This document shows positions 1,975-64,000 of a stretch of 64,000 nt of DNA, in pieces. Numbering within the stretch: the first letter of the stretch is position 1; each line of letters starts with the position of its first letter. Source of the DNA: Escherichia coli (GTDB lineage Bacteria; Pseudomonadota; Gammaproteobacteria; Enterobacterales; Enterobacteriaceae); NCBI RefSeq assembly GCF_044324785.1, contig NZ_CP172129.1; one strand, given 5' to 3'. A model generated the notes under the pieces. That model was not told the origin of the DNA. It worked only from the letters and a program-made list of their open reading frames with translations, and did no database searches. Position numbers and translations under genes: made by a program.

Positions 1975-4152
1975 TCAGAATGATGCGGTAACTCCGGCAT
2001 AGTAAGCCCGGCCTGGCTCGTTATAGGTATTCGCCCCTTCAGAAGATCGGAAGATCTGTTTATTGAGGATATTACTGACGCCGACATTAAGACGCAGATT
2101 TTTATTAATATCGTAATTGAAGTTCGTCCCCACCAGTGAATAAGCGCCCAGCTCTTTACCTGACAGACCGCCAGTATCTTCACTGCGGGTTTCCGCATGA
2201 GTACGCGGTTTTTGTCTGCCATATAACGTCCAGTTGACGCTGGCAGAAAACGCCTGGGTGATGGTCCAGTTAAGCGAGTTATTGATAGTATATTTCGGGA
2301 TGACCGACAGAGGATTACCGGTGTCTTTTTGCTCCGAAGTGATCATCCATGTGGCATTGGTATTCCAGTTCAGACGATCTTTCACCAGTGGGAAAGACAT
2401 ACTGGCTTCGATACCGTCCACCAGAGCTTTCCCGCCATTCTGCCACTTGAGGATATATGCGCCTGAAGCGGTTTGCCCGATAACGTTATCCCCGGCCACG
2501 ATCTTATTCTGGTAATCATTGCGGAAGTAGGTCACACTTGCGTGGTAATCTTCCCAGGTGAACTCCAGCCCAATTTCTTTATTGACGCTGATTTCCGGAT
2601 CGAGATCTTTATTACCGATCAGGTAGCACCCGCCTGATGTAATATCTTTTGGACAGCCATTGCCTTTCGAGTAGAGCAGATAGCCTTCACTGGATTGATA
2701 CAGGTTTGGGGCTTTAAAGGTTCGGGCAACCCCTGCTTTGACTTTGAAATAATCGCCCAATTCCTGCGAAAGATTCAGACTGGGGCTGAAGTTCCCGCCG
2801 GAGTCGCTGAGATAATCAAAGCGCAGGCCGGGAATGATATTCGTGCCAGGAACCGGCTCAATGTTATCTTCAATATACAGCGCACTGATTTGAGAATGAT
2901 TTTTACTGCTGCGATCCGCAGCAGAGCCAGAAATACCGCTGATATCACTGTCATTCACCGTCAGGCTGGTAGAGGAAGGATCATCGAGCTTATCGCGGTT
3001 CCACTCTGCACCAACGGTCAGCGTTTGATCAACCATCACATTCAAAGGAATATTAAGCTCGCCGCTGGTTCGCCAGGAACTCAGGCGATTGGTCGTAAAC
3101 TTTTCACCCGCTAAAATACGCCCTTCACCACCGCCGGATAATCCTTCATTCATGCGGGTATTATTGGTTTTCTCGTAATAAACACCAAAGCGACTTTGTC
3201 CCCAGTCCCAGATACCATTATGCGTAATGCCATAATTCTGTCGGTACAGGCGGTTCGTCTCTTTGCCGGATTTTGCCAGGCTTTCGGTAACTGCACTGGA
3301 AGAACTGTTTTGCGTATCGCCCGCATAGATATTCCCCTGGCGGCTATATCCGGCTTCGAAATCGAGAATCTGCTGCGGATTTAATTTCCACGAGACAACG
3401 CCGTTAATATCTTTGTTACGTACCCCTTCATGCCCGGCTGCGTTTTTCGTACCGACCGGAGAATTAATATCCCAACTGTCAGCATCCGTTTTATTCAGGT
3501 TACCATACAAACGCGTGGTAAGAGCATTACCAGCCAGAGGCCCACTAAGGCTGAAATTGGCGCGACGCGTAGCGCCCTCATCGCTACTTTCCGGCTGATT
3601 GGTGTATAACGACAGCGAACCGTGCCAGTCGTTGGTGGGACGTTTGGTAATGATGTTCACCACCCCCCCGGCTGCCCCCGAACCGTAGCGCGCCGCCGCA
3701 GGGCCGCGGATCACTTCAATACGCTCAACCTGTTCCGGTGGCACCCAGTTGGTGTCACCGCGGGTATCACGCTCTCCACGCCAGCTATAACGCACGGAGT
3801 TACGTGACGTCACCGGTACACCATCAATTAAAATTAAGGTGTTTTCCGGCCCCATACCACGAATATCGATCTGGCGGTTGTTACCGCGTGTGCCCGAGGC
3901 GCTATTGCCGGTAAGATTGACGCCAGGCATTTTACGAATAATATCTGAAAGGTCGTTTACCGGAGGGGTCTTTTTAATATCCTCGCTGGTAATAACCGAC
4001 ACGCCCGGCTGCTGTTTTAATACCTGCTCAGCGGTGGCTTCCACCACCAGAGTCTCGTCATTATCATCGTCGGAGGATTTGGCTACTGATACCTGGCTAT
4101 TCAACCCAACCAGGAGCACAGTTAGCGACCAGAGGATTTTGTTAATTCTCAT
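1975..4152 (-). CDS. iroN: TonB-dependent outer-membrane salmochelin receptor IroN (725 aa)
   Basis: 725-aa product with signal peptide, TonB box-like ETLVVEA and C-terminal aromatic residue typical of TonB-dependent receptors. Confidence 0.9.
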   Translation of the reverse strand: MRINKILWSLTVLLVGLNSQVSVAKSSDDDNDETLVVEATAEQVLKQQPGVSVITSEDIKKTPPVNDLSDIIRKMPGVNLTGNSASGTRGNNRQIDIRGMGPENTLILIDGVPVTSRNSVRYSWRGERDTRGDTNWVPPEQVERIEVIRGPAAARYGSGAAGGVVNIITKRPTNDWHGSLSLYTNQPESSDEGATRRANFSLSGPLAGNALTTRLYGNLNKTDADSWDINSPVGTKNAAGHEGVRNKDINGVVSWKLNPQQILDFEAGYSRQGNIYAGDTQNSSSSAVTESLAKSGKETNRLYRQNYGITHNGIWDWGQSRFGVYYEKTNNTRMNEGLSGGGEGRILAGEKFTTNRLSSWRTSGELNIPLNVMVDQTLTVGAEWNRDKLDDPSSTSLTVNDSDISGISGSAADRSSKNHSQISALYIEDNIEPVPGTNIIPGLRFDYLSDSGGNFSPSLNLSQELGDYFKVKAGVARTFKAPNLYQSSEGYLLYSKGNGCPKDITSGGCYLIGNKDLDPEISVNKEIGLEFTWEDYHASVTYFRNDYQNKIVAGDNVIGQTASGAYILKWQNGGKALVDGIEASMSFPLVKDRLNWNTNATWMITSEQKDTGNPLSVIPKYTINNSLNWTITQAFSASVNWTLYGRQKPRTHAETRSEDTGGLSGKELGAYSLVGTNFNYDINKNLRLNVGVSNILNKQIFRSSEGANTYNEPGRAYYAGVTASF

Positions 4153-4267: not shown

Positions 4268-5006
4268 TAGCAAAAAAAAAAGCAATCCCTCACAAGATAA
4301 ATATATCGATTTTTCATAAATATCAAATTGATATATAACATATGTTTTTTATTTCATTGCACTTGTCGATCATCGGGAATTTTGTCACAATTTCTCACGG
4401 ATAGTGTTCACATTGTTTCTGACCTGCATTTCAGGCGCGGGCGCTGCTTATGTATATAAGGGCCTGTGGTCGACGAATCAGCATAATCAGATCTTCCTGC
4501 GAGCAATTTCTTTCAGCGTATCAGGCAGCACTATCGGATTATCTACGTGCGTTTTTGATTCACATTGTGTGTGAAACTTCATACATCATGATTCGCTTTC
4601 CCTACTCAGTTCTGATGATTGTTTTTTATTCTATTAACACGGAGTTAAGATTCTACCCTCGGTGTCCTCATTATTAATGAGGAATGCTACCTATCTAAAA
4701 ACTGACCGAAACTTTGGGGCATCCCTGGAGGTTTCCAAGGAGAAAAAGGTGACAGTGATAGTGCCACATTGTGAGGAAATTCCTGAGAAACTCCTGGTTC
4801 ACACACATAATTCAGGAGTTTGCCATAGATAGTAACCAATTGTTTTATATTTTAAGACCATTAAATACGCGGCTACGATAGCGCTTTATATAATCATAAA
4901 CTGTAGAGATAAAATATCTGCTTCTCTGATAACACTAATTGAGTGTCTTAAACTAAGTAATTTCATTTTTCCCCCTTTAAAAGCAATATATGTGCAATAG
5001 TTGAAG

Positions 5007-8065: not shown

Positions 8066-9340
8066 TTGTTTCGCCAGGATGCTTTAGAAAACAGAAAAAT
8101 GAAGTGGCAGGGACGGGCAATATTACTTCCCGGAATACCACTGTGGTTAATCATGCTGGGAAGCATTGTGTTTATTACGGCATTTCTGATGTTCATTATT
8201 GTTGGTACCTATAGCCGCCGTGTTAATGTCAGTGGTGAGGTCACAACCTGGCCAAGAGCTGTCAATATATATTCAGGTGTACAGGGATTTGTTGTCAGGC
8301 AGTTTGTTCATGAAGGGCAGTTGATAAAAAAAGGGGATCCTGTTTATCTGATTGACATCAGTAAAAGTACACGCAATGGTATTGTCACTGATAATCATCG
8401 CCGGGATATAGAAAACCAGCTGGTTCGTGTGGACAACATTATTTCCCGTCTGGAAGAAAGTAAAAAAATAACGCTAGATACCCTGGAAAAACAACGTCTG
8501 CAATACACAGATGCGTTCCGTCGCTCATCAGACATTATACAGCGTGCAGAGGAAGGGATAAAAATAATGAAAAATAATATGGAGAATTACAGATACTATC
8601 AGTCAAAAGGACTGATTAATAAAGATCAATTAACTAACCAAGTTGCATTATATTATCAACAACAAAACAACCTTCTCAGTCTGAGCGGACAAAATGAACA
8701 AAATGCCCTGCAGATAACCACTCTGGAGAGTCAGATTCAGACTCAGGCAGCAGATTTTGATAATCGTATCTATCAGATGGAACTGCAACGACTCGAATTG
8801 CAGAAAGAACTGGTTAACACTGATGTGGAAGGCGAAATCATTATCCGGGCGTTGTCTGACGGGAAAGTTGACTCCCTGAGTGTCACTGTAGGGCAAATGG
8901 TCAATACCGGAGACAGCCTTCTGCAGGTTATTCCTGAGAACATTGAAAACTATTATCTTATTCTCTGGGTCCCGAATGATGCTGTTCCTTATATTTCGGC
9001 TGGTGACAAAGTGAATATTCGTTATGAAGCCTTCCCCTCAGAAAAATTTGGGCAGTTCTCTGCTACGGTTAAAACTATATCCAGGACTCCTGCGTCAACA
9101 CAGGAAATGTTGACCTATAAGGGAGCACCTCAAAATACGCCGGGTGCCTCTGTTCCCTGGTATAAAGTCATTGCGACGCCTGAAAAGCAGATAATCAGGT
9201 ATGACGAAAAATACCTCCCTCTGGAAAATGGAATGAAAGCCGAAAGTACACTATTTCTGGAAAAAAGGCGTATTTACCAGTGGATGCTTTCTCCTTTCTA
9301 TGACATGAAACACAGTGCAACAGGACCGATCAATGACTAA
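8066..9340 (+). CDS. cvaA: Colicin V secretion protein CvaA (HlyD-type membrane fusion protein; alternative internal start at 8099)
   Basis: Translation matches CvaA over its full length as recalled; N-terminal TM segment and coiled-coil region. Confidence 0.9.
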
Positions 9341-10109
9341 CAGGAATTTCAGACAAATTATAAATCTGCTTGATTTGCGCTGGCAACGTCGTGTTCCGGT
9401 TATTCATCAGACGGAGACCGCTGAATGTGGACTGGCCTGCCTAGCAATGATATGCGGTCATTTTGGTAAGAATATTGACCTGATATATCTTCGCCGGAAG
9501 TTTAATCTCTCTGCCCGTGGAGCAACCCTTGCAGGAATCAATGGAATAGCGGAGCAACTGGGGATGGCCACCCGGGCTCTTTCACTGGAGTTGGATGAAC
9601 TTCGAGTCCTCAAAACGCCGTGTATTCTCCACTGGGATTTCAGTCACTTCGTCGTTCTGGTCAGCGTAAAGCGTAACCGTTATGTACTGCATGATCCGGC
9701 CAGGGGCATAAGATATATCAGCCGGGAGGAAATGAGCCGATATTTTACAGGCGTTGCACTTGAGGTCTGGCCCGGAAGTGAATTCCAGTCGGAAACCCTG
9801 CAGACCCGCATAAGTCTTCGTTCACTGATTAACAGTATTTACGGTATTAAAAGAACGCTGGCGAAAATTTTCTGTCTGTCAGTTGTAATTGAAGCAATCA
9901 ATCTGCTAATGCCGGTGGGGACACAGCTGGTTATGGATCATGCTATTCCTGCGGGGGACAGAGGGCTACTGACGCTAATTTCTGCTGCTCTTATGTTTTT
10001 TATATTACTCAAAGCTGCAACGAGTACGCTGCGCGCATGGTCTTCACTGGTTATGAGCACGCTCATCAATGTACAGTGGCAGTCGGGGCTGTTCGATCAT
10101 CTTCTCAGA
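9333..10109 (+). pseudogene. cvaB: cvaB 5' fragment (C39 peptidase domain of the colicin V ABC exporter), interrupted after codons LLR by an IS
   Basis: MTNRNFRQ... with catalytic Cys in ETAECGLACLAMI; frame runs into the IS inverted repeat and stops. Confidence 0.85.
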
Positions 10110-47659: not shown

Positions 47660-47749
47660 TGCGGCACGTTTTAGTCTACATTTATCTGTCTTTACTTAAT
47701 TTCCTTTAGCACAGGCTAGAAAACATAACTAACTGGCCTGAATATTATA

Positions 47750-48093
47750 TCTGGGACCACGGTCCCAGTTGTATTGTCGGTCTGATAATCAGTCTGGGAC
47801 CACGGTCCCACTCATATTGTCGGTCTGATAATCAGTCTGGGACCACGGTCCCACTCATATTGTTGGTCTGCTAATCAGTCTGGGACCACGGTCCCACTCA
47901 TATTGTCGGTCTGCTAATCAGTCTGGGACCACGGTCCCACTCATATTGTTGGTCTGATTATCGGTCTGGGACCACGGTCCCACTCATATTGTTAGTCTGA
48001 TAATCAGTCTGGGACCGCGGTCCCACTCGTATTGTTGGTCTGCTAATCAGTCTGGGACCACGGTCTCACTTGTATTGTCGATCTGATTATCAG
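47750..48093. repeat. sopC: sopC centromere: 8 tandem 43-bp repeats, each with the inverted repeat tgggaccacggtccca
   Basis: Counted directly; repeats abut with no spacers (not CRISPR). Confidence 0.9.
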
Positions 48094-48699
48094 CGTGAGA
48101 CTACGATTCCATTAATGCCTGCCAGTGAGTGTGTGGAACATATCTTGGCCAGTGGCTTGGTCTGTGATGTGCTGCGTATACCGGGTGAACCGCCCCGCCG
48201 CTTGTTTGACCGCTATATTCTGCGGGAGTTTTCTTGGAGGCACGGGATGAAATCCGCAGCATGGCGGATGCCCTGGCAAAAATCCGGAAATGATGACGAT
48301 GGCGGGGAAAATCCCCGCCTTTTTCCTGCCGGTCCCCGGACAGAGCACAAAGGAAGTCGCCGCCGGCTCCGCTTTACCCGGCCATGCGGAGCATGGCCTT
48401 GTGGGGGTTCAGTTATGTGGACGTCGAGTCGTGTGCGGGCTGTGCCGTGCCTCCATCTTAGCCGGGCTGGCGTTGATGCAAGCAACTGTCTTAATGGGAG
48501 GCGGTTATCTGAAAAAAGTACGGGATAATATTATGGAATCGCCCATCTCAAGCAAAAAACTGACTCGCTTCGATACTACGCTGACAGGCTGTTTTGAGCG
48601 AGATATCTCTCGTGTCGGGCATCGACATTTTAAATGATTCTAAATAATATGAGCAGGGTCAGTCTTATTAAAGATTAAAACACCGGATAACAAGTTTTA

Positions 48700-49281
48700 T
48701 TGATTATGGATGAAGAGAAAACTCGTGCTGAAGTGGCACACATAGAATTTATTTCATATGGTACGTCTCGAATTTTTGATAGGCGTATGAGATCCTTAGA
48801 CTGGAAGCGTAAGGTTGTCACCTTCCTTGGGGTCTTTGTTCCACTGATGATAGGTTGTGCAGTTTTATCATTCGGACTTGAAGCTCCATTTCTGCCGCTT
48901 TGCATCACAATTGCCGGTGTGGCAAGTATCATGCAATTGGGGTTCTCGCTGTGGTCTTTGGTTTCCGGATGGGATCGCTCATATAGTGATTGCATGGCTT
49001 CCGTTAAGGAAAATACAGCCATTTATAACCTAGCTGGTAGTGTTCGCAAGAAAATAGGTAAGCTTGACGAAGCCAAATTGGAAATTTTGATAGACGATTT
49101 GACGGAAAAATTTGAGCGAAGGGAGCAGGAAGACTTAACTTTGTGTGTGAGTGATAAAGAACTTCGTTATGCAAACCGTATGTCCTGTTTCTACTTCAAA
49201 AAAAAATGCCATATTTGTAATGTCGTTCCCCTAACTTTGAAACCGGGAAAATGTGTTTGTGATGGTTGTGGGAAATTTTAA
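48700..49281 (+). CDS. Hypothetical protein (193 aa) with two central hydrophobic helices and a C-terminal Cys cluster (CHIC...CVCDGC)
   Basis: Hydrophobic stretches VVTFLGVFVPLMIGCAVLSF and LPLCITIAGVASIMQLGFSLWSLV; region is AT-richer than its flanks. Confidence 0.5.
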   Translation: MIMDEEKTRAEVAHIEFISYGTSRIFDRRMRSLDWKRKVVTFLGVFVPLMIGCAVLSFGLEAPFLPLCITIAGVASIMQLGFSLWSLVSGWDRSYSDCMASVKENTAIYNLAGSVRKKIGKLDEAKLEILIDDLTEKFERREQEDLTLCVSDKELRYANRMSCFYFKKKCHICNVVPLTLKPGKCVCDGCGKF

Positions 49282-49293
49282 CAAGGAGAACAT

Positions 49294-49506
49294 ATGAGTA
49301 GTGCAAAAATTCTTAACGCTTACTTCGAGGCTTCTGAAGAAGATCGAAAGGAGTTCCTACGGGTTCTTAGTCATTTTTATAAGGATAACCGAAGAGTACC
49401 TCTGCAAGAGGGCATGGAGAGCTTTGCCGTCAATGAAAGCATCCGTAAATCGCAGTCAATTAACTTTGCCCCTATGCAAGGTGGGTGTCCACTCTGCGGC
49501 AAGTAA
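49294..49506 (+). CDS. Hypothetical small protein (70 aa) ending in CPLCGK
   Basis: 13 bp downstream of the previous ORF, same strand, with a ribosome-binding site (aaggag); likely co-transcribed. Confidence 0.4.
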   Translation: MSSAKILNAYFEASEEDRKEFLRVLSHFYKDNRRVPLQEGMESFAVNESIRKSQSINFAPMQGGCPLCGK

Positions 49507-49766
49507 CGACCAAAGCCGCTTGACTAGCGGCTTGATAGATTTCTTTATATTGTAACTAGCATCTTTACATCCTGTTAAAAAAGTGGCTATTGCCCGCTAT
49601 CTTGCAATTCTCCGTATTTGGTACAAAAACAGCCGAAAGCTGCACTATCAGCAGCTATGAGCAGCGGCCCCACTGACATCGCGGATGCTTTGTCCGTGGG
49701 AGGGCGGATCACAACAGGCCTGCGGGATAAGTTGTTCTTTCTGTCATTATGTAAAATGACCGGCAG

Positions 49767-50768
<1,002 letters not shown>

Positions 50769-51139
50769 TCAATCAACTGTACGGATTTGTGATGAGTGAC
50801 TCAGCTCATGCGCGGGACGCTTGCATGCGGGCTTAATACCCTCGGGTTCGCACGTGCTGCATGAGCTTTGCCAGACCTACAGATTCAGTTTATGCCATCT
50901 TCAAGATATAAGGATACGCTTCGCCGCTGCGGTCACCCGGTCCCTCCTTCCCGTCTGCCGTGATTTTCCGGTCGTTTACCCGCTCAGATTTCGCGGTCTC
51001 ACCCTCCAACTCCCGCCAGCCGTGTGTGTCAGGCTGCGGCTTCCCTTGCGCCCTTTGCATCCCCGCCTTATCGCCCGGCTTTTATGGAGGCACGGCACAG
51101 CCCGGTGTCGCGGAATATGTGAACAACGGAGGAAATCCC

Positions 51140-51565
51140 ATGCAGTATGCGAAACCTGTCACTCTGAATGTTGAAGAGTGCGACCGTCTGTCTTTTCTGC
51201 CTTACCTGTTTGGCAACGATTTTCTGTATGCCGAAGCATATGTGTACGCGCTGGCGCAAAAAATGATGCCGGAATATCAGGGAGGCTTCTGGCACTTCAT
51301 CCGCCTGCCGGACGGTGGCGGTTACATGATGCCGGATGGCGACCGTTTTCATCTGGTTAACGGTGAAAACTGGTTTGACCGCACGGTCAGTGCCGATGCC
51401 GCAGGCATCATTCTGACTTCCCTTGTGATTAACCGCCAGTTGTGGCTGTACCACGACAGCGGTAACGCAGGGCTGACACACCTGTACCGGATGCGTGATG
51501 CGCAGTTGTGGAGCCACATCGAATTTCACCCCGAATGTAACGCGATTTACGCGGCGCTGGACTGA
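51140..51565 (+). CDS. klcA: ArdB/KlcA-family antirestriction protein (141 aa)
   Basis: [16 protein letters not shown] region resembles the KlcA/ArdB core; leading-region position. Confidence 0.65.
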
Positions 51566-51654
51566 TTAACGGACGGGGCGGCAATGCCGCCCCTGTAAAG
51601 GAGACGAGAACATGTACTGTTAAAGAAATTATCCGCGATGTACTGGATACAGAC

Positions 51655-52026
51655 GTGCCGGACAGTGAATGCGTTTTTGCCGTGGTGCTGACCCGTGGGA
51701 ATGTGCGCCATATGGCTCAGGACTGGAACCTGTCAGACGATGAGCTGGAAACCGTCATGCAGCGGCTGGACGATGCTTTTGTATATGGCGCATGTGACAG
51801 AGTTGTTTCCGATATTGTCAATGAACTGATGGAGGAAAAGCGCGTAAACCGCCTTGTAACAGTCCCTGCGGTGCTGCTGGAAAAAGTGATGGTGATGGCT
51901 GGTAGTGAAATTTATCGCCTCCATGCTGTCGGGAGCGAGAACGGGGGCGACGGTGACGCATTTGTCAGGGAAGAACGTGAGATTATGCGGGTGATGCGTC
52001 AGGCGCTGGACGGGGAGAACGGGTAA
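51655..52026 (+). CDS. Hypothetical leading-region protein (123 aa)
   Basis: ORF with a stop/start overlap (TAATG) with the next ORF. Confidence 0.4.
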   Translation: MPDSECVFAVVLTRGNVRHMAQDWNLSDDELETVMQRLDDAFVYGACDRVVSDIVNELMEEKRVNRLVTVPAVLLEKVMVMAGSEIYRLHAVGSENGGDGDAFVREEREIMRVMRQALDGENG

Positions 52027-52208
52027 TGAATATCAGCACGGAAACCCGCGAAATTCTGCGTAATTACAAAACCGTGATTAATGCGCGGCGTCGTGAGATG
52101 GGGCAGAAACCGCTCACCACCGCGCAGATTGTTGATGAAATCTGCGATTTTGTGACGAATCAGCAGGCGGTTTTCCTCGGTGGTCACTATATCCTTCAGG
52201 GCAGCTGA
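52026..52208 (+). CDS. Hypothetical leading-region protein (60 aa)
   Basis: Translationally coupled small ORF. Confidence 0.3.
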   Translation: MNISTETREILRNYKTVINARRREMGQKPLTTAQIVDEICDFVTNQQAVFLGGHYILQGS

Positions 52209-52442
52209 AACAGGTGATACAGGGCAGGCGGTGGAGGCCGCCTGTCAGCCCGCGCGAACCCCCCTGGCAGGCTGACGCCTGCCGGAAGGGAAGCGGGCCA
52301 CGCTGACGCGTCGCCCGTTACCCTTCCCGTTAGTGATGTGTCCGGAATGTTTTTTCTGATGTTATTTTTCTGTGGTTACCGTGTTTGTTATTGTTCTTCT
52401 TCTTTTTCCTCTTCCTCTTCTTTCCGTTCCTCTCCTGTTTAT

Positions 52443-52972
52443 GGCTTTTCCGGGCGTCCCCCTGGCGGGGCGGGCTGTCGTGAACGGAGCCAGCGGAGCT
52501 GTCTCCGCCCTGGCGGGCTTCCATCCCTGACGCGAAACCATGGCTTGCAGCGACCGTTCCGGTCGCGCCGCCTCTGTCGCGCCGTGGCCTGCGCTCCCGG
52601 CATCCCGGCAAAAGGCGCCGGAATGTAAGGAGCAACGCCGTTTCGCAAACCGCGCTTCACGTCGTTGCGGCGGGTCCCTGCTCATTGCCTGCCAAGTGCC
52701 ACACACCCGTATGAGTCCCTGTCGCCGGGGGCTGAGACAGCCACAACCTGCCGCACTGACTGTCCAGGGTAAATGAACAGCCCACAAAATTTTTTACCCA
52801 GAACCCGGTAAAAAATTTTGCGTTCTGCCCAGGACAGGTGCGTCAGGCCGTGGCAGTGATGCCCCTTGCGGCGAAGGTTCTCAAACGGGTGAAGTTCATA
52901 CCACAGGGAATACAGCAGCAGGTTCCCGCGAAACGTCAAAACCGCGGCTCCCGAAACTCAACGGGTGATGTT
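52443..52972 (+). repeat. Structured ~530-bp repeat, copy A (Frpo/ssi-like single-strand promoter element)
   Basis: Near-identical to 55701-56228 and 61091-61618; internal palindromes such as caaaattttttaccc...gggtaaaaaattttg. Confidence 0.6.
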
Positions 52973-53201
52973 CTTTAAAAATCAGGATTTATTTCAGGCT
53001 CCGGCAATACGCATTTATTTGTTCTGTCAGTCATCCGGCTGGCAGGTAATGAGAACGCAGGAACAGAAGGAGGAAAACACCGGAAAGCGTCAGATGCAGA
53101 TATGAAAAAAGCAGGTCAGGGACCTGCTTAATCCACGCCGTAGAAATCGCCGCAATCGATTTTCACGGCTTCACTAACCTGTGTCATAAGGAGTTTCATT
53201 T

Positions 53202-53432
53202 ATGACAGTAAGTATTGTTTCACCTTCCGCAGCGGCTGTAAAGCCCCGCCGTCATCCCCGTTTCAGACGCGAAGACATCCCCGCGCCGGAAATTGACCCC
53301 GTGCTGAAAGCATTCGGGCGACACATAGCCCGGAGTTTTCACCGGGGACGTGGTGTACACATCCCCGCCATGAAAAACACGGCTTTCGGGCAGGTGCTCC
53401 GCACACTTGAACTGAAACGCGCTTTTAACTGA
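53202..53432 (+). CDS. Hypothetical small basic protein (76 aa)
   Basis: ORF downstream of repeat copy A with an upstream ribosome-binding site (aaggag). Confidence 0.35.
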   Translation: MTVSIVSPSAAAVKPRRHPRFRREDIPAPEIDPVLKAFGRHIARSFHRGRGVHIPAMKNTAFGQVLRTLELKRAFN

Positions 53433-53483
53433 TGAGGTGAGCCGCCCCGCGAGGGGCGGCAACAGACGGAAGGAGAACATTTT

Positions 53484-54845
53484 ATGACATTAGCAGCAAT
53501 CACCATGACCGCCCCAGAAGCCGCCAGCCCTGTGCAGATGTACCGCGCGACCTACTCACCGGATGACAACAAACTGCGCCTGTATGCTGCGTCACGTCTT
53601 GACCCGGAGACGTATAAAAAAGTGCATGATGCCGGTTTTCGCTGGGCACCAAAACAGGCGCTGTTTGTGGCTCCAGCCTGGACACCGGGCCGGGAAGACG
53701 TGCTCCTCTCACTTGCCGGAGAGATTGAGGATGAAGACAGCACGCTCGCTGAACGTCAGGAAGCACGGGCGGAGCGGTTTACCGGATACAGCGGAAAGCG
53801 GGCCAGTGAATCCGCACAGGCACTTGATGAAGTGGAAAGACTGGCCGCGATGATCCCGCCCGGTCAGCCCATTCTTGTGGGGCATCACAGCGAACGCCGC
53901 GCCCGTCGTGATGCGCAGCGTATTGAAAACGGCATGAAACGTGCCGTGATGCTCGTTGAACGTGCGGAATACTGGGAAGAGCGGGCGCGGTCGGCACTGC
54001 TTCACGCGAAGTATAAAGAACGTCCGGACGTTCGCTGGCGTCGTATCAAAAAAATCGAAGCTGATTTGCGCAAGGCTGAAAAGACCATCGCGCAGTCGCA
54101 GAAATATCTGACGATATGGCGGGCTGAATCGCTGGATCTGAATATGGCAAAACTCATCAGTAGTCATGACCGTATCAGTGCCTGTTTCCCGCTGGATACG
54201 TATCCGCGCCCGGCAGAAAAAAGCCAGTATGAAGGAAGTCGATCGTTATGGTCGGCCCTGGATGATGACATCATCACCACGGAGCAGGCCCGCGAAATTG
54301 CGATCCGCTGTCATAAACGGCAGATTCAGCATCAGCAACGCTGGGTTAACCACTATCAGAACCGCCTGATCTATGAGCGTGCCATGCTGGACGAAAGCGG
54401 CGGCGTGGTTACCCGGACACAGGATTTTGAGCCGGGCGGACAGGTTTTCAGCCGGGGCGAGTGGCTGACCATCATCCGCGTGAACAAAAGCAACGGGACG
54501 GTGAGTTCAGTCACAACGCCGAATTACAGTTTTCTCGGGTACAGTGGCACGATGAAAGTGACGCCCGATCGCATTACGGACTACAAAGCACCATCGGCAG
54601 AAGAGGCTGCCGTCGCCAGTCAGGCCGCTAAGCGTCCGCCTGTTGTCAACTATCCGGGAGAAGGTTTCCGGGAAATGACAAAGGCACAGTGGGCTGCCCT
54701 GCCCCGGGACTGTAAGGCCGTGCGCAGTGTGGCAGAGGCAGAAGACCACGGGGCATATCGTTACCGCCGCACAATGGACAATAATTTCCGCCTGGTGAAT
54801 GTGTATATCACCGACATGAAGATTACGGAAATCCCACAGAAATAA
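53484..54845 (+). CDS. Conserved leading-region protein of unknown function (453 aa)
   Basis: Long ORF with ribosome-binding site ggagaa; no catalytic motif recognised. Confidence 0.55.
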   Translation: MTLAAITMTAPEAASPVQMYRATYSPDDNKLRLYAASRLDPETYKKVHDAGFRWAPKQALFVAPAWTPGREDVLLSLAGEIEDEDSTLAERQEARAERFTGYSGKRASESAQALDEVERLAAMIPPGQPILVGHHSERRARRDAQRIENGMKRAVMLVERAEYWEERARSALLHAKYKERPDVRWRRIKKIEADLRKAEKTIAQSQKYLTIWRAESLDLNMAKLISSHDRISACFPLDTYPRPAEKSQYEGSRSLWSALDDDIITTEQAREIAIRCHKRQIQHQQRWVNHYQNRLIYERAMLDESGGVVTRTQDFEPGGQVFSRGEWLTIIRVNKSNGTVSSVTTPNYSFLGYSGTMKVTPDRITDYKAPSAEEAAVASQAAKRPPVVNYPGEGFREMTKAQWAALPRDCKAVRSVAEAEDHGAYRYRRTMDNNFRLVNVYITDMKITEIPQK

Positions 54846-54892
54846 GGTATATCCTCCCGGGAAAATCCCCGGGGGATGACGGAGATAATGAC

Positions 54893-55456
54893 ATGTACAG
54901 TCAGTTAAGAGAACGTATCCGGCTGATGCGCGCAAGGCTGGATAACGCCGCGCCGGTTGCTGAAATCCGGGCTGAATCTCAGCTTTTTGTGACTCCTGCC
55001 CCGGTCTGTGATCGCCTGGTGACGCTGGCGGGGATCAGCAACCGTGATCACATTCTGGAACCCTCTGCCGGCACCGGGGCCATACTGCGGGCGATTAGGG
55101 ATACCGCGCCGGTAGCCATGTGTGATGCGGTGGAAATCAACAGCGGGCTGGTCCGGTATCTGCGGGAAAATTTTAACGGTGTCAGGGTTCAGTGTGGCGA
55201 CTTCATGGAATGGCAGCCGGTGCAGTATTACAGCCGGGTTATCATGAATCCGCCGTTCAGCCACGGGCAGGATATCCGGCATATCCTGCGGGCCTTTTCC
55301 CTGTTGCGTCCGGGTGGCGTGCTGGTCGCCGTCTGTCTCAACGGGCCACGCCAGCAGGAGAAGCTGTTACCGTTTTCTGACGTCCGCGAGGAGCTGCCGC
55401 GCGGCACATTTGCTTATACCGATGTCCCGACGATGATTATTCGTCTGCGTGCCTGA
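54893..55456 (+). CDS. Orphan DNA N6-adenine methyltransferase (187 aa)
   Basis: SAM-binding EPSAGTGAI and catalytic NPPF motifs. Confidence 0.75.
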   Translation: MYSQLRERIRLMRARLDNAAPVAEIRAESQLFVTPAPVCDRLVTLAGISNRDHILEPSAGTGAILRAIRDTAPVAMCDAVEINSGLVRYLRENFNGVRVQCGDFMEWQPVQYYSRVIMNPPFSHGQDIRHILRAFSLLRPGGVLVAVCLNGPRQQEKLLPFSDVREELPRGTFAYTDVPTMIIRLRA

Positions 55457-55700
55457 AGACTCCGGGCAGGCGGGAGGATAAATGCTCGTCTGCCCGCGCC
55501 GGGAAAAGACCGCGCGCCGGTGGCGCTGAAAGGGGCCGCGCTCACGCGCCGCCCCTTTCATTACGCGGAAATTCTGCTGTGGGCTTCTGTCTTTTCAGAT
55601 CTGTCATTTGTCTGTTACTGATGATGTTCCTGCTACTGCTACTGTTTTTCTTTTTTCTGCTGCTCTGATTACTGTCTGTCTTGTTCTTCTTCTGCCTGTG

Positions 55701-56228
55701 CCTTTTCCGGGCGTCCCCCTGGCGGGGCGGGCTGTCGTGAACGGAGCCAGCGGAGCTGTCTCCGCCCTGGCGGGCTTCCATCCCTGACGCAAAACCCCTG
55801 GCTTGCAGCGACTGTTCCGGTCGCGCGCCTCTGTCGCGCCGTGGCCTGCGCTCCTGGCATCCCGGCAAAAGGCCGCCGGGATGTAAGGCGCAACGCCGTT
55901 TCGCAAACCGCGCTTCACGTCGTTGCGGCGGGTCCCTGCCCGTTGTTATGTCCGGTGCCATTCACCTGTTTAAGCCCCTGTCGCCGGGGGCAAAGACAGC
56001 CACAACCGTCTCCGCCAGTCCAGGGGTGAAATGCACATCCCGCAAAACTTTTTGCCCAAAAGCAGGCAAAAACTTTTGCGGTCTGCCCCCGGACAGTCGT
56101 TTCCTGCCGTGGCAGTGATGCCCCTTGCGGCGAAGGTTTTCAAAAAGGTGATGGTGAATACCGGAGGGAACAAAAGGCAGGTCCCCGCAAAACGTCAAAA
56201 CCGCGGCTCCCGAAACTCAAAAGATGAT
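55701..56228 (+). repeat. Structured ~530-bp repeat, copy B (Frpo/ssi-like), upstream of ssb
   Basis: See copy A. Confidence 0.6.
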
Positions 56229-56261
56229 GGGGCTGAAAACATCAACAGAAGGAGACACATC

Positions 56262-57090
<829 letters not shown>

Positions 57091-60317: not shown

Positions 60318-60450
60318 TGCGGCAATAATCACACGGATTACCCGTGAACTGGTTGAACGACCAGATTATTTTCAGGGAAAGTGAGTGTGGTCAGCGTGCA
60401 GGGATATGAGCTATGATGTGCCCGGCGCTTGAGGCTTTCTGCCTCATGAC

Positions 60451-60750
60451 GTGAAGGTGGTTTGTTACCGTGTTGTGTGGCAGAAGGCAGAAAGCCCCGT
60501 AGTTAATTTTTCATTAACCCACGAGGCCCCCTGTATGTCTGATCAACAACAGTATGGCCTCTTACCGTGCTTAATGCAAGGAGGAGTAAACCATGAAACT
60601 ACCGGGAAACGCCCTTATCTGGTGCGTATTAATCGTGTGCTGCACGTTGTTAATATTCACACTCCTGACCCGGAATCGTCTGTGCGAAGTCCGGCTGAAG
60701 GACGGATACAGGGAGGTTACGGCAAGTTTGGCTTACGAATCCAGCGGTAA
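60451..60750 (+). CDS. mok-like overlapping reading frame of the hok-type locus
   Basis: ORF in a different frame overlapping the toxin gene and ending 4 bp before its stop. Confidence 0.4.
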
Positions 60751-60785: not shown

Positions 60786-61090
60786 CAGGGCTGATGCTGG
60801 TCTGACTGCACTGAAGCGCCTTTATAAAGGGGCTGCTGGTTCGCCGGTGGCCCCTTTCTCCTTGCTGGCATTGTGCGGGCATGAACAACCAGACTGCCAG
60901 GAAGGCCGTTTCCCTCCGGGAACGGGGATGAACGTGCGCCTGCGGCGCCCGTTCTTTTCCCCCGCCTTCTCTGTTTATGACCTGTCAGAAATCACATCAC
61001 CTTCCCTTTGATTATTCTCTTTTTCCTCCTGTTCTGACTCTGATTACTGCTGCCCTGATTATTGTCTGTTTTGTTGTTCTCCTGCTTATG

Positions 61091-61618
61091 CCTTTTCCGG
61101 GCGTCCCCCTGGCGGGGCGGGCTGTCGTGAACGGAGCCAGCGGAGCTGTCTCCGCCCTGGCGGGCTTCCATCCCTGACGCGAAACCCCGGGCTTGCAGCG
61201 ACCGTTCCGGTCGCGCCGCCTCTGTCGCGCCGTGGCCTGCGCTCCCGGCATCCCGGCAAAAGGCCGCCGGGATGTAAGGGGCAACGCCGTTTCGCAAACC
61301 GCGCTTCACGTCGTTGCGGCGGGTTCCTGCCCGTTGTTGTGTCCGGTGCCATTCACCTGTTTAAGCCCCTGTCGCCGGGAGCTGATACAGCCACAACCTG
61401 CCGCACTGACTGTCCAGGGTAAATGAACAGCCCACAAAATTTTTTACCCAAAACCCGGTAAAAAATTTTGCGTTCTGCCCAGGACAGGTGCGTCAGGCCG
61501 TGGCAGTGATGCCCCTTGCGGCGAAGGTTCTCAAACAGGTGATGGTGAATACCGGAGGGAACAAACGGCAGGTCCCCGCAAAACGTCAAAACCGCGGCTC
61601 CCGAAACTCAACAGATGA
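61091..61618 (+). repeat. Structured ~530-bp repeat, copy C (Frpo/ssi-like)
   Basis: See copy A. Confidence 0.6.
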
Positions 61619-61652
61619 TGGGGGCTGAAAACCAGAGAGAGGAGAAAGCAGG

Positions 61653-63719: not shown

Positions 63720-64000
63720 TTAACTCACTCCACAAAAAGGCTCAACAGGTTGGTGGTTCTCACCACCAAAAGCACCACACCCCACGCAAAAACAAGTTTT
63801 TGCTGATTTTTCTTTATAAATAGAGTGTTATGAAAAATTAGTTTCTCTTACTCTCTTTATGATATTTAAAAAAGCGGTGTCGGCGCGGCTACAACAACGC
63901 GCCGACACCGTTTTGTAGGGGTGGTACTGACTATTTTTATAAAAAACATTATTTTATATTAGGGGGGGCTGCTAGCGGCGCGGTGTGTTTTTTTATAGGA
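63720..64000. other. oriT: F-type origin of transfer (oriT) with nic region
   Basis: Reverse complement of 63750-63790 reads ttgcgtggggtgtggtgcttttggtggtgagaacc (F nic region); inverted repeat gcggtgtcggcgcg...cgcgccgacaccg at 63884-63915. Confidence 0.8.

Follow-up and report, generated by a model that had tools for sequence, protein, structure and literature searches.

A putative split DUF3560-methyltransferase behind a single-stranded-DNA promoter repeat in the leading region of an Escherichia coli IncF plasmid

M.EcoGIX is a methylase encoded in the plasmid leading region. It is silent during vegetative growth, and its proposed role is to shield entering DNA against restriction (Fomenkov et al. 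2020, PMC7736820). It is among the closest known systems to the genes considered here, which are four open reading frames (ORFs) of 123, 60, 76 and 453 amino acids (aa) at positions 51,655 to 54,845 of a 64,000-nucleotide (nt) stretch of Escherichia coli DNA, referred to throughout as the window, together with the 187-aa methyltransferase gene that follows them. As with M.EcoGIX and M.BceJIII, that gene encodes an orphan adenine methyltransferase, lies in an early-transferred region and is oriented for expression from the entering strand. However, M.EcoGIX is a single, single-strand-specific protein of the beta class (DPPY) behind a class-3 promoter, whereas the window enzyme has an NPPF core (motif I before motif IV, as in M.TaqI and KsgA), a separate 453-aa DUF3560 partner, and a class-1 (Frpo) promoter upstream; its activity and its specificity for single-stranded DNA (ssDNA) are predicted at most.

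Promoters of this kind fire only before conversion to the double-stranded form (PMC12672017). The Frpo/ssiD ('ssp1') operons of F and ColIb-P9 (ssb-yfjA-yfjB-psiB-psiA) share with the window the upstream repeat family, the orientation relative to nic and a long hairpin on the transferred strand. The window operon differs in its cargo genes and in a cis-antisense RNA between promoter and first gene, and its start is placed by homology. Class-2 ssDNA promoter hairpins precede the klcA operon in F and IncI plasmids, and early induction of klcA and methylase operons has been reported (Wen et al. 2025, PMC12672017); a 2026 preprint names this promoter 'ssp2' and adds that it also stalls complementary-strand synthesis. 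The window holds the same three genes in the same order as the klcA operons of IncF and IncI plasmids behind ssp2, but with the hairpin split by a 2.4-kb insertion containing an IS110-family element and with a 5-bp deletion at the yfeC start. The antisense RNA, AS-pc01, resembles those of hok/sok and FinP/traJ in being short and structured, with its own promoter and terminator, and in overlapping the translation start of its target, although that target is here a basic 76-aa protein heading an ssDNA-promoter operon. Finally, fused DUF3560-methyltransferases of about 650-700 aa (such as UniProt A0A212J123, 'Methyltransferase domain protein') are homologous to the whole 453-aa protein, YdbA (43-57% identity), and to the window methyltransferase (37-48% identity), in the same order. 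They differ in being single polypeptides and in their context, which is that of diverse bacteria and of phage-like or metagenomic contigs instead of IncF leading regions, and are likewise uncharacterised.

A first-pass annotation of this stretch had listed the four ORFs as unassigned, interleaved with anti-restriction genes, and candidates for early-expressed anti-defence or establishment factors. All four are present on the plus strand, and the neighbours are as it described, with a klcA/ardB-like gene on one side and an orphan methyltransferase, ssb, psiB and psiA on the other. The ORFs are nevertheless known genes (yfeC, yffA, ydaB and ydbA), and they are grouped as two operons, not loosely interleaved. 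The gene order is named in the collinear plasmid pMccB17 as klcA, yfeC (ycjA/yubJ), yffA, ydaB, ydbA, 'rsmA' methyltransferase and ssb (PMC10912980), and the annotation of the IncI plasmid pN603 also supplies names for collinear ORFs. The reading proposed here is that both operons are 'zygotic', and that the second one, a Frpo-driven early operon comprising ydaB, ydbA and the methyltransferase gene, encodes a two-piece orphan adenine methyltransferase. We infer this from sequence and hold it with evenly divided confidence. The features of the second operon are the following.

52330..52985, minus strand: copy A of the Frpo/ssiD repeat (class 1 ssDNA promoter; repeat match at 52362-52985), with a core at 52626-52970 that is 82% identical to F ssiD
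53106..53207, minus strand: antisense RNA AS-pc01 (Rfam RF02875, 105 bits for a gathering score of 79, E = 1.9e-18)
53129-53109, minus strand: AS-pc01 terminator, a hairpin and T-run
53202..53432, plus strand: ydaB, 76 aa, first gene of the operon
53214..53242, minus strand: sigma-70-like promoter of AS-pc01 (TTTACA, 17 nt, TG-AACAAT), with the start placed near 53207
53484..54845, plus strand: ydbA, 453 aa, putative N-terminal module of the split DUF3560-methyltransferase
54893..55456, plus strand: gamma-type N6-adenine methyltransferase core, 187 aa, putative C-terminal module of the split protein
55619..56244, minus strand: copy B of the Frpo/ssiD repeat, upstream of ssb, 97% identical to F ssiD, marking the end of the operon

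The evidence for a split protein comes from the distant relatives of YdbA, which are mostly about 650-700 aa long. Their first ~450 residues match all of YdbA, and the last ~170 residues of the fused relatives match the window methyltransferase at 37-40% identity (BLASTP, E = 1e-37 to 9e-26). A methyltransferase domain was found in 99 of the 150 best 50%-cluster representatives of YdbA relatives and in 83 of the 111 distant ones that align over at least 85% of YdbA; all 83 fusions carry it at the C-terminal end, behind a linker with a median of 65 aa. The Pfam domain MTS was found in 64-92 of 135 YdbA family members. At the level of sequence, ydbA and the 187-aa methyltransferase gene each encode one half of a protein that is made in one piece by most distant relatives. 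The methyltransferase itself presents LEPSAGTG (motif I) at residues 55-62, followed by NPPF (motif IV) at residues 119-122, the gamma-type arrangement, and its resemblance in the PDB profile search is confined to the catalytic domains of M.TaqI and KsgA/Erm. It consists of the catalytic Rossmann core and has no recognition domain, for which there is no room at that length.

The first-pass annotation had seen no catalytic motifs in the 453-aa ORF, and motifs I and IV of adenine methyltransferases are both absent from it. To this extent the observation was correct, yet the protein corresponds to the non-catalytic half of a methyltransferase fusion, and its residues 89-206 match Pfam DUF3560 (PF12083, model positions 3-121 of 124, E = 1e-36). 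The DUF3560 profile is matched by all 135 aligned homologues, and an exhaustive profile-free search yielded 3868 cluster representatives of DUF3560 homologues. The AlphaFold2 (AF2) model of YdbA is confident, with a predicted local distance difference test score (pLDDT) of 93.4 and a predicted template modelling score of 0.82, and assigns residues 20-83 to a small alpha/beta domain, 88-304 to four long helices and 320-442 to C-terminal domains rich in beta structure. Near-invariant positions are R91, R95, R98, R106, R167, R184, R186, R187, K189, R196, R286 and R294; conservation falls mostly on helix arginines, plus a GQPILVGHHSE loop, and the DUF3560 segment has an isoelectric point (pI) of 10.2. 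As modelled, YdbA is a helical scaffold rich in arginine, to which small alpha/beta and beta domains are added. No likeness to solved structures was found beyond generic coiled coils, and in the PDB profile search all matches were to the methyltransferase portion of the alignment, leaving the DUF3560 module without any. A search of AFDB50 returned family members only, from Proteobacteria, Acidobacteria and Planctomycetes; many of these bear a methyltransferase name. In the survey of Samuel et al. (2024, PMC11541004), DUF3560/YdbA is family 28, for which the top structural match is given as a 'methyltransferase domain protein'. From its relatives, YdbA is more plausibly a component of the neighbouring 'orphan methyltransferase' than a factor in its own right.

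Several observations weigh against this reading, and some of them favour one in which YdbA is an independent early effector (anti-defence, DNA-tethering, or delivered by a type IV secretion system), merely co-packaged with the methyltransferase, so that fusion would mean co-delivery. About a quarter of the full-length distant YdbA homologues (28 of 111) have no methyltransferase domain, and two loci of such homologues (L008/L009 and L010) have no intact adjacent methyltransferase gene either, which indicates that the DUF3560 module can exist alone. The ratio of nonsynonymous to synonymous substitution rates (dN/dS), obtained by comparing the window with a Klebsiella IncF plasmid, F and an IncI plasmid, is 0.31 for the methyltransferase against 0.065 for ydbA, i.e., the former diverges faster. 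One YdbA family member carries the large-polyvalent-protein domain LPD29, the window methyltransferase matches domains within giant phage proteins of 1259-3431 aa, and DUF3560 is shared by functionally uncharacterised phage families (phrog_6744, E = 1.6e-18); fusions in the 'polyvalent' proteins of mobile elements can join unrelated activities. In addition, F and IncI1 plasmids transfer well without the ydaB-ydbA-methyltransferase module. Points against an independent effector are the fixed domain order of the fusions, a methyltransferase that has no recognition domain of its own, and the fact that ydbA and the methyltransferase gene have stayed side by side and in the same orientation across IncF lineages (59-76% identity). 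We regard the independent-effector reading as rather unlikely.

The two-piece methyltransferase reading also draws on the promoter and on the orientation of transfer. Two further features bear on these.

61009..61635: copy C of the Frpo/ssiD repeat, with a core 90% identical to F ssiD
63769..63785, minus strand: F-type nic sequence GTGGGGTGTGGTGCTTT of the origin of transfer, an exact match and a single occurrence

The search for nic had 0.25 chance occurrences expected at no more than three mismatches. Given the exact match on the minus strand, minus is the transferred strand (T-strand) and the leading region extends towards lower coordinates; all four ORFs, being on the plus strand, are therefore templated by the entering T-strand. 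They lie 9-12 kb from nic, inside the leading region. The 1 kb between yffA and ydaB is not empty, as it holds a Frpo/ssiD-type repeat and AS-pc01. The repeat, copy A, belongs to a three-copy family of roughly 600 nt each and stands directly upstream of ydaB-ydbA as a Frpo homologue with a long hairpin, its T-strand folding at -161 kcal/mol (z -9.2). It is presumed to be the promoter of ydaB, ydbA and the methyltransferase gene, with the transcription start assigned by homology only.

The order Frpo, ydaB, ydbA, methyltransferase, Frpo, ssb is kept in the Klebsiella IncF plasmid at 59-82% protein identity, and the same order is found in pMccB17 (PMC10912980). All three genes are missing from F, and ydaB and ydbA are missing from both F and IncI plasmids. 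When compared with window positions 52330-52985, the ssb-proximal Frpo of F (8951-9610) is a mosaic, copy A-like in its left three quarters and copy B-like at its right end. This is expected from recombination between flanking repeats and makes the module a cassette bounded by Frpo copies, which was probably lost or gained via Frpo-repeat recombination.

Many overlapping ORFs of 40-140 aa occur on both strands of the Frpo repeats (52338-52978, 55542-56198 and 60992-61589), and in copy B they extend ssb upstream in the same frame (56031-56894, '287 aa'). The ORFs inside the repeats are likely ORF-finder artefacts, although the largest family of Samuel et al., family 1 (YdaB/YdfB/YgdA), may be related to them.

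AS-pc01 lies between Frpo copy A and ydaB. The match covers model positions 1-99 of 99, the RNA folds with a z of -4.0, and both a promoter and a terminator were found for it; the sigma-70-like promoter lies inside ydaB and ends 7 nt upstream of the predicted 5' end. AS-pc01 is complementary to the ydaB leader (5' untranslated region), to its Shine-Dalgarno sequence and to its first two codons. The Klebsiella plasmid carries the RNA at the equivalent position (94.8 bits), and F lacks it. In the K. pneumoniae plasmid pUHKPC07, a 75-aa ORF (4682-4909) ends at the AS-pc01 terminator, with no conserved counterpart in the window. Knowledge of AS-pc01 is limited to its Rfam family, which derives from RNA-seq ('antisense to pHK01_035'), and the literature searches made here returned no study of its function.

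The product of ydaB is basic, as the first-pass annotation had it: YdaB has a pI of 11.9 and a grand average of hydropathy of -0.36, i.e., it is hydrophilic and strongly basic. Its 233 relatives are confined to Enterobacterales plasmids, and the 120 listed are all at least 75% identical. Its AF2 model (pLDDT 77) is built of two helices without any strand, and no membrane helix is predicted. A weak partial match to the Pfam family HU-CCDC81_euk_1 (PF14908) was found at residues 25-62 (model positions 18-55 of 89, E = 7.3e-4, 20 bits), and some YdaB homologues carry an HU-type name in NCBI. The PDB profile search returned nothing, including no match to HU or IHF. An HU-like YdaB is kept as a lead only, given that neither the AF2 model nor the PDB searches back the 20-bit match. 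No linkage of YdaB to DUF3560 was found in distant loci, where the small ORFs upstream are unrelated. The window holds no YdaB paralogues, and family 1 of Samuel et al. may or may not be this gene. YdaB has no supported biochemical role.

The arrangement of ydaB and AS-pc01 would also suit a type I toxin-antitoxin-like module, comparable to hok/sok 7 kb away or to basic nuclease toxins such as RalR with its antisense RalA, which would serve plasmid maintenance and not entry. In such a module excess YdaB would be toxic and AS-pc01 would act as its antitoxin. The Shine-Dalgarno sequence and the start of a small ORF are overlapped by a cis-antisense RNA that has a promoter and a terminator of its own, this arrangement is conserved in a diverged plasmid, a sok RNA is present at 60423-60595, and toxin-antitoxin genes are enriched in leading regions (PMC11541004). 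YdaB is, however, hydrophilic and basic with no membrane helix in its model, unlike the small hydrophobic membrane toxins of the Hok type; it heads an operon with ydbA and the methyltransferase gene downstream of a Frpo element; and it matches no toxin family in Pfam, NCBIfam or PADLOC. A module of this kind is therefore considered improbable.

If the two-piece methyltransferase reading is correct, both operons would be read from the transferred single strand, and the Frpo hairpin would drive a burst of ydaB, ydbA and methyltransferase expression while the plasmid is single-stranded. YdbA would be the nucleic-acid-binding or targeting subunit of a two-gene methyltransferase, and the pair would methylate the incoming plasmid DNA just after entry, so that host restriction enzymes do not cut it. 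This role would be like that of M.EcoGIX, with a different enzyme. Given that AS-pc01 needs a complementary-strand template and a double-stranded promoter, it could appear only after conversion, and would then silence residual expression of ydaB, and perhaps of the operon, keeping the burst short. An early burst of transcripts in transconjugants has been published only for F and pESBL, both of which lack ydaB and ydbA (PMC12672017). Taken further, the three genes could constitute a strand-state timer, switched on by the ssDNA promoter, acting through a YdbA-targeted methyltransferase and switched off by AS-pc01, which would spare the host harmful methylation. This extension is tentative, and we would not expect it to hold in full.

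The other two ORFs, yfeC and yffA, belong to the klcA operon, a class-2 operon to which the presence of an upstream Frpo is not applicable. Its features are as follows.

48441..48482, strand not assigned: left arm of the ssp2 hairpin, parted from its partner arm (alignment with F up to about 48482)
48483..50910: insertion of ~2.4 kb inside the ssp2 hairpin
50911..51139, minus strand: right part of the ssp2-like hairpin and klcA leader, near-identical to F and IncI pN603
51140..51565, plus strand: klcA/ardB-type antirestriction gene, first of the operon (PHROG 10132 anti-restriction, E = 2.4e-20; 'antirestriction protein' in the NCBI Prokaryotic Genome Annotation Pipeline, PGAP)
51612..51623, plus strand: remnant of the normal yfeC start, ATG TAC TGT TAA (MYC-stop), from alignment with F and pN603
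51655..52026, plus strand: yfeC (ycjA/yubJ; PGAP 'DUF1380 family'), 5'-truncated frame of 123 aa
52026..52208, plus strand: yffA, 60 aa, overlapping the yfeC stop as TAATG

In F, the intact element upstream of klcA forms a long hairpin on the T-strand (-83 kcal/mol, z -6.8). In the window, the arms are located at 48441-48482 and about 51040-51110, with an inverted copy of TGTGCCGTGCCTCCAT, from the left arm, at 51084-51099. They are split by the insertion, so no intact long hairpin is present upstream of klcA in the window, and the local remainder folds no better than shuffles (z +2.0). The insertion contains a mobilome CxxCx11CxxC gene (48700-49281), a 70-aa ORF and an RNA-guided transposase of the IS110 family (49767-50738, minus strand), for which PGAP gives the name ISEc32. 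AAGG-like bases are found at both junctions of the insertion.

The yfeC gene is damaged as well. In F and pN603 it encodes 140 aa and starts in the context GAGAAC ATG TAC TGT ACT GTT AAA, from which 5 bp (one TGTAC) are missing in the window. Hence the ATG at 51612 reads MYC-stop and the normal start is destroyed; the sole start of the remaining frame is the GTG at 51655, which has no Shine-Dalgarno sequence. The first-pass annotation had described the 123-aa and 60-aa ORFs as coupled, and the TAATG overlap agrees with this, yet by alignment the 123-aa ORF is a damaged allele and not an intact gene. PGAP annotates the frameshifted yfeC as a 153-aa protein with an ATT start at 51565 overlapping the klcA stop, which looks like an annotation rescue and not a real start. 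Among the 5000 best plasmid matches to the 91-nt segment of the yfeC start, 322 are at least 99% identical, 98 are 95-99% identical and 4580 are 90-95% identical. Matches of at least 95% (about 6-8% of the matching plasmids) appear to carry the deletion allele, and those of 90-95% are consistent with the intact form.

YfeC is acidic (pI 4.5). It is paralogous to YfcB, which comes after an M.EcoGIX-type methylase in F and IncI plasmids: F YfeC and pN603 YfcB, a bona fide DUF1380 protein, are 30% identical over 116 aa (E = 1e-10), with common motifs in the alignment. The window YfeC itself has no match to Pfam DUF1380 (PF07128) at E <= 10 and none in NCBIfam, the remaining Pfam hits being noise only. 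PDB profile searches gave no match for YfeC or YffA, and neither has a supported biochemical role.

Given the split ssp2 hairpin and the lost yfeC start, early expression of yfeC and yffA is doubtful in this plasmid, and its klcA-yfeC-yffA operon looks crippled. The idea of early-expressed factors agrees with the position and orientation of the genes, with the Frpo repeat upstream of ydaB-ydbA, and with the induction of the homologous klcA operon of F and pESBL in transconjugants (PMC12672017).

These lesions of yfeC and its upstream hairpin, the C-terminal frameshift of ssb, which shows that parts of the leading region are decaying, and the lack of ydaB and ydbA in F and IncI plasmids could suggest that the small ORFs are annotation noise or decaying remnants without a function of their own, but this is very improbable and already contradicted for the families as a whole by dN/dS values of 0.07-0.32 at dS (synonymous divergence) up to 2.7 across all four ORFs, by their occurrence in plasmids of Escherichia, Klebsiella, Salmonella and other hosts (at least 5000 records), by strong Shine-Dalgarno sequences and by 3868 DUF3560 cluster representatives in several phyla. 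Individually, dN/dS is 0.11 for ydaB (dS 1.1), 0.08-0.28 for yffA and 0.25-0.32 for yfeC; each of these three small ORFs occurs in at least 5000 plasmid records, and good Shine-Dalgarno sequences precede ydaB, ydbA, the methyltransferase gene and yffA. In sequence terms all four ORFs are real genes, and conservation across related plasmids, whose absence would have counted against the first-pass annotation, is thus present.

The homology and structure searches which that annotation had called for yielded DUF3560 and the methyltransferase fusion for ydbA, and no known anti-restriction, anti-CRISPR, defence or other functional family for any of the four ORFs in NCBIfam, PADLOC or PHROGs. Our literature search on DUF3560, DUF1380, ydaB, ydbA, yfeC and yffA found no functional study. 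In Supplementary Table 1 of Samuel et al. 2024 (PMC11541004), YffA is family 6 and YfeC is family 14, both 'uncharacterized'. In that survey, families 6 and 28 have no match to known defence families, family 14 has only a few ArdB/KlcA matches, and these families are among the largest uncharacterised ones of leading regions, for which anti-defence roles were proposed. The anti-defence or establishment idea is hence sensible, but it is already the published view and not new. EC958_A0140, a 'maintenance' gene of pEC958, was considered as one of these ORFs and is unlikely to be, since only 17 plasmids carry it.

The end of the window is the F-type leading region of a pS88/ColV-like IncF plasmid. 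Many pS88/ColV-type IncF plasmids of E. coli and Salmonella carry the 3.2-kb stretch at 100% identity. Matches to it were found in at least 5000 plasmid records, and among the matches listed 3234 cover at least 80% of its length. The region is an ordinary, well-sampled IncF leading region. Downstream of the 187-aa methyltransferase gene are ssb, a ParB-like gene (recently renamed YfjB/HerB), psiB and psiA. The plasmid ssb (56262-56894) has a 1-nt deletion, at about 56815, in GATGATATCCCGTTCTGA relative to F, by which the conserved C-terminal ...DDIPF tip is replaced by a 31-aa extension overlapping a DUF905 ORF. In pECOS88, no ssb coding sequence is annotated at this place, which is consistent with a pseudogene call. 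The sok antitoxin RNA (Rfam RF01794, 92.7 bits) indicates that a hok/sok module lies between psiA and Frpo copy C. Farther away, about ten tandem 43-bp repeats directly downstream of sopA/sopB (47707-48136) fit the sopC partition site of F-like plasmids. In the Klebsiella counterpart, pUHKPC07, extra genes stand between klcA and Frpo (2364-3898), namely ardA, a homologue of DNA polymerase III theta and a 105-aa ORF.

Chromosomal CRISPR (clustered regularly interspaced short palindromic repeats) spacers of K. pneumoniae match the DUF3560 gene (three spacers), the adjacent S-adenosylmethionine methyltransferase gene, ydeA and a multi-copy intergenic sequence (PMC6965323), which indicates that hosts target exactly the DNA that enters first. 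The targeted intergenic sequence resembles the Frpo repeat (...CCCGCCGCAACGACG...); in the window, this concerns the Frpo repeats as well as 53484-55456.

The survival of a resistance or virulence plasmid during the first minutes after entry into a new host is decided by leading-region genes, yet among the most abundant families of these genes about one in three has no function assigned (Samuel et al. 2024, PMC11541004). To this the present analysis adds the anatomy of the two operons, the putative DUF3560-methyltransferase split, the placement of AS-pc01 and a set of lineage-specific lesions. The latter (the split ssp2 hairpin, the yfeC start deletion and the frameshift of the ssb tip) are natural, ready-made variants for questions about establishment. 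DUF3560 proteins are best considered together with the adjacent 187-aa methyltransferase, and AS-pc01 as a candidate off-switch. The strand-state timer, if true, would give a function to DUF3560, a large uncharacterised leading-region family with members in several phyla, and would give the orphan small RNA AS-pc01 a role.

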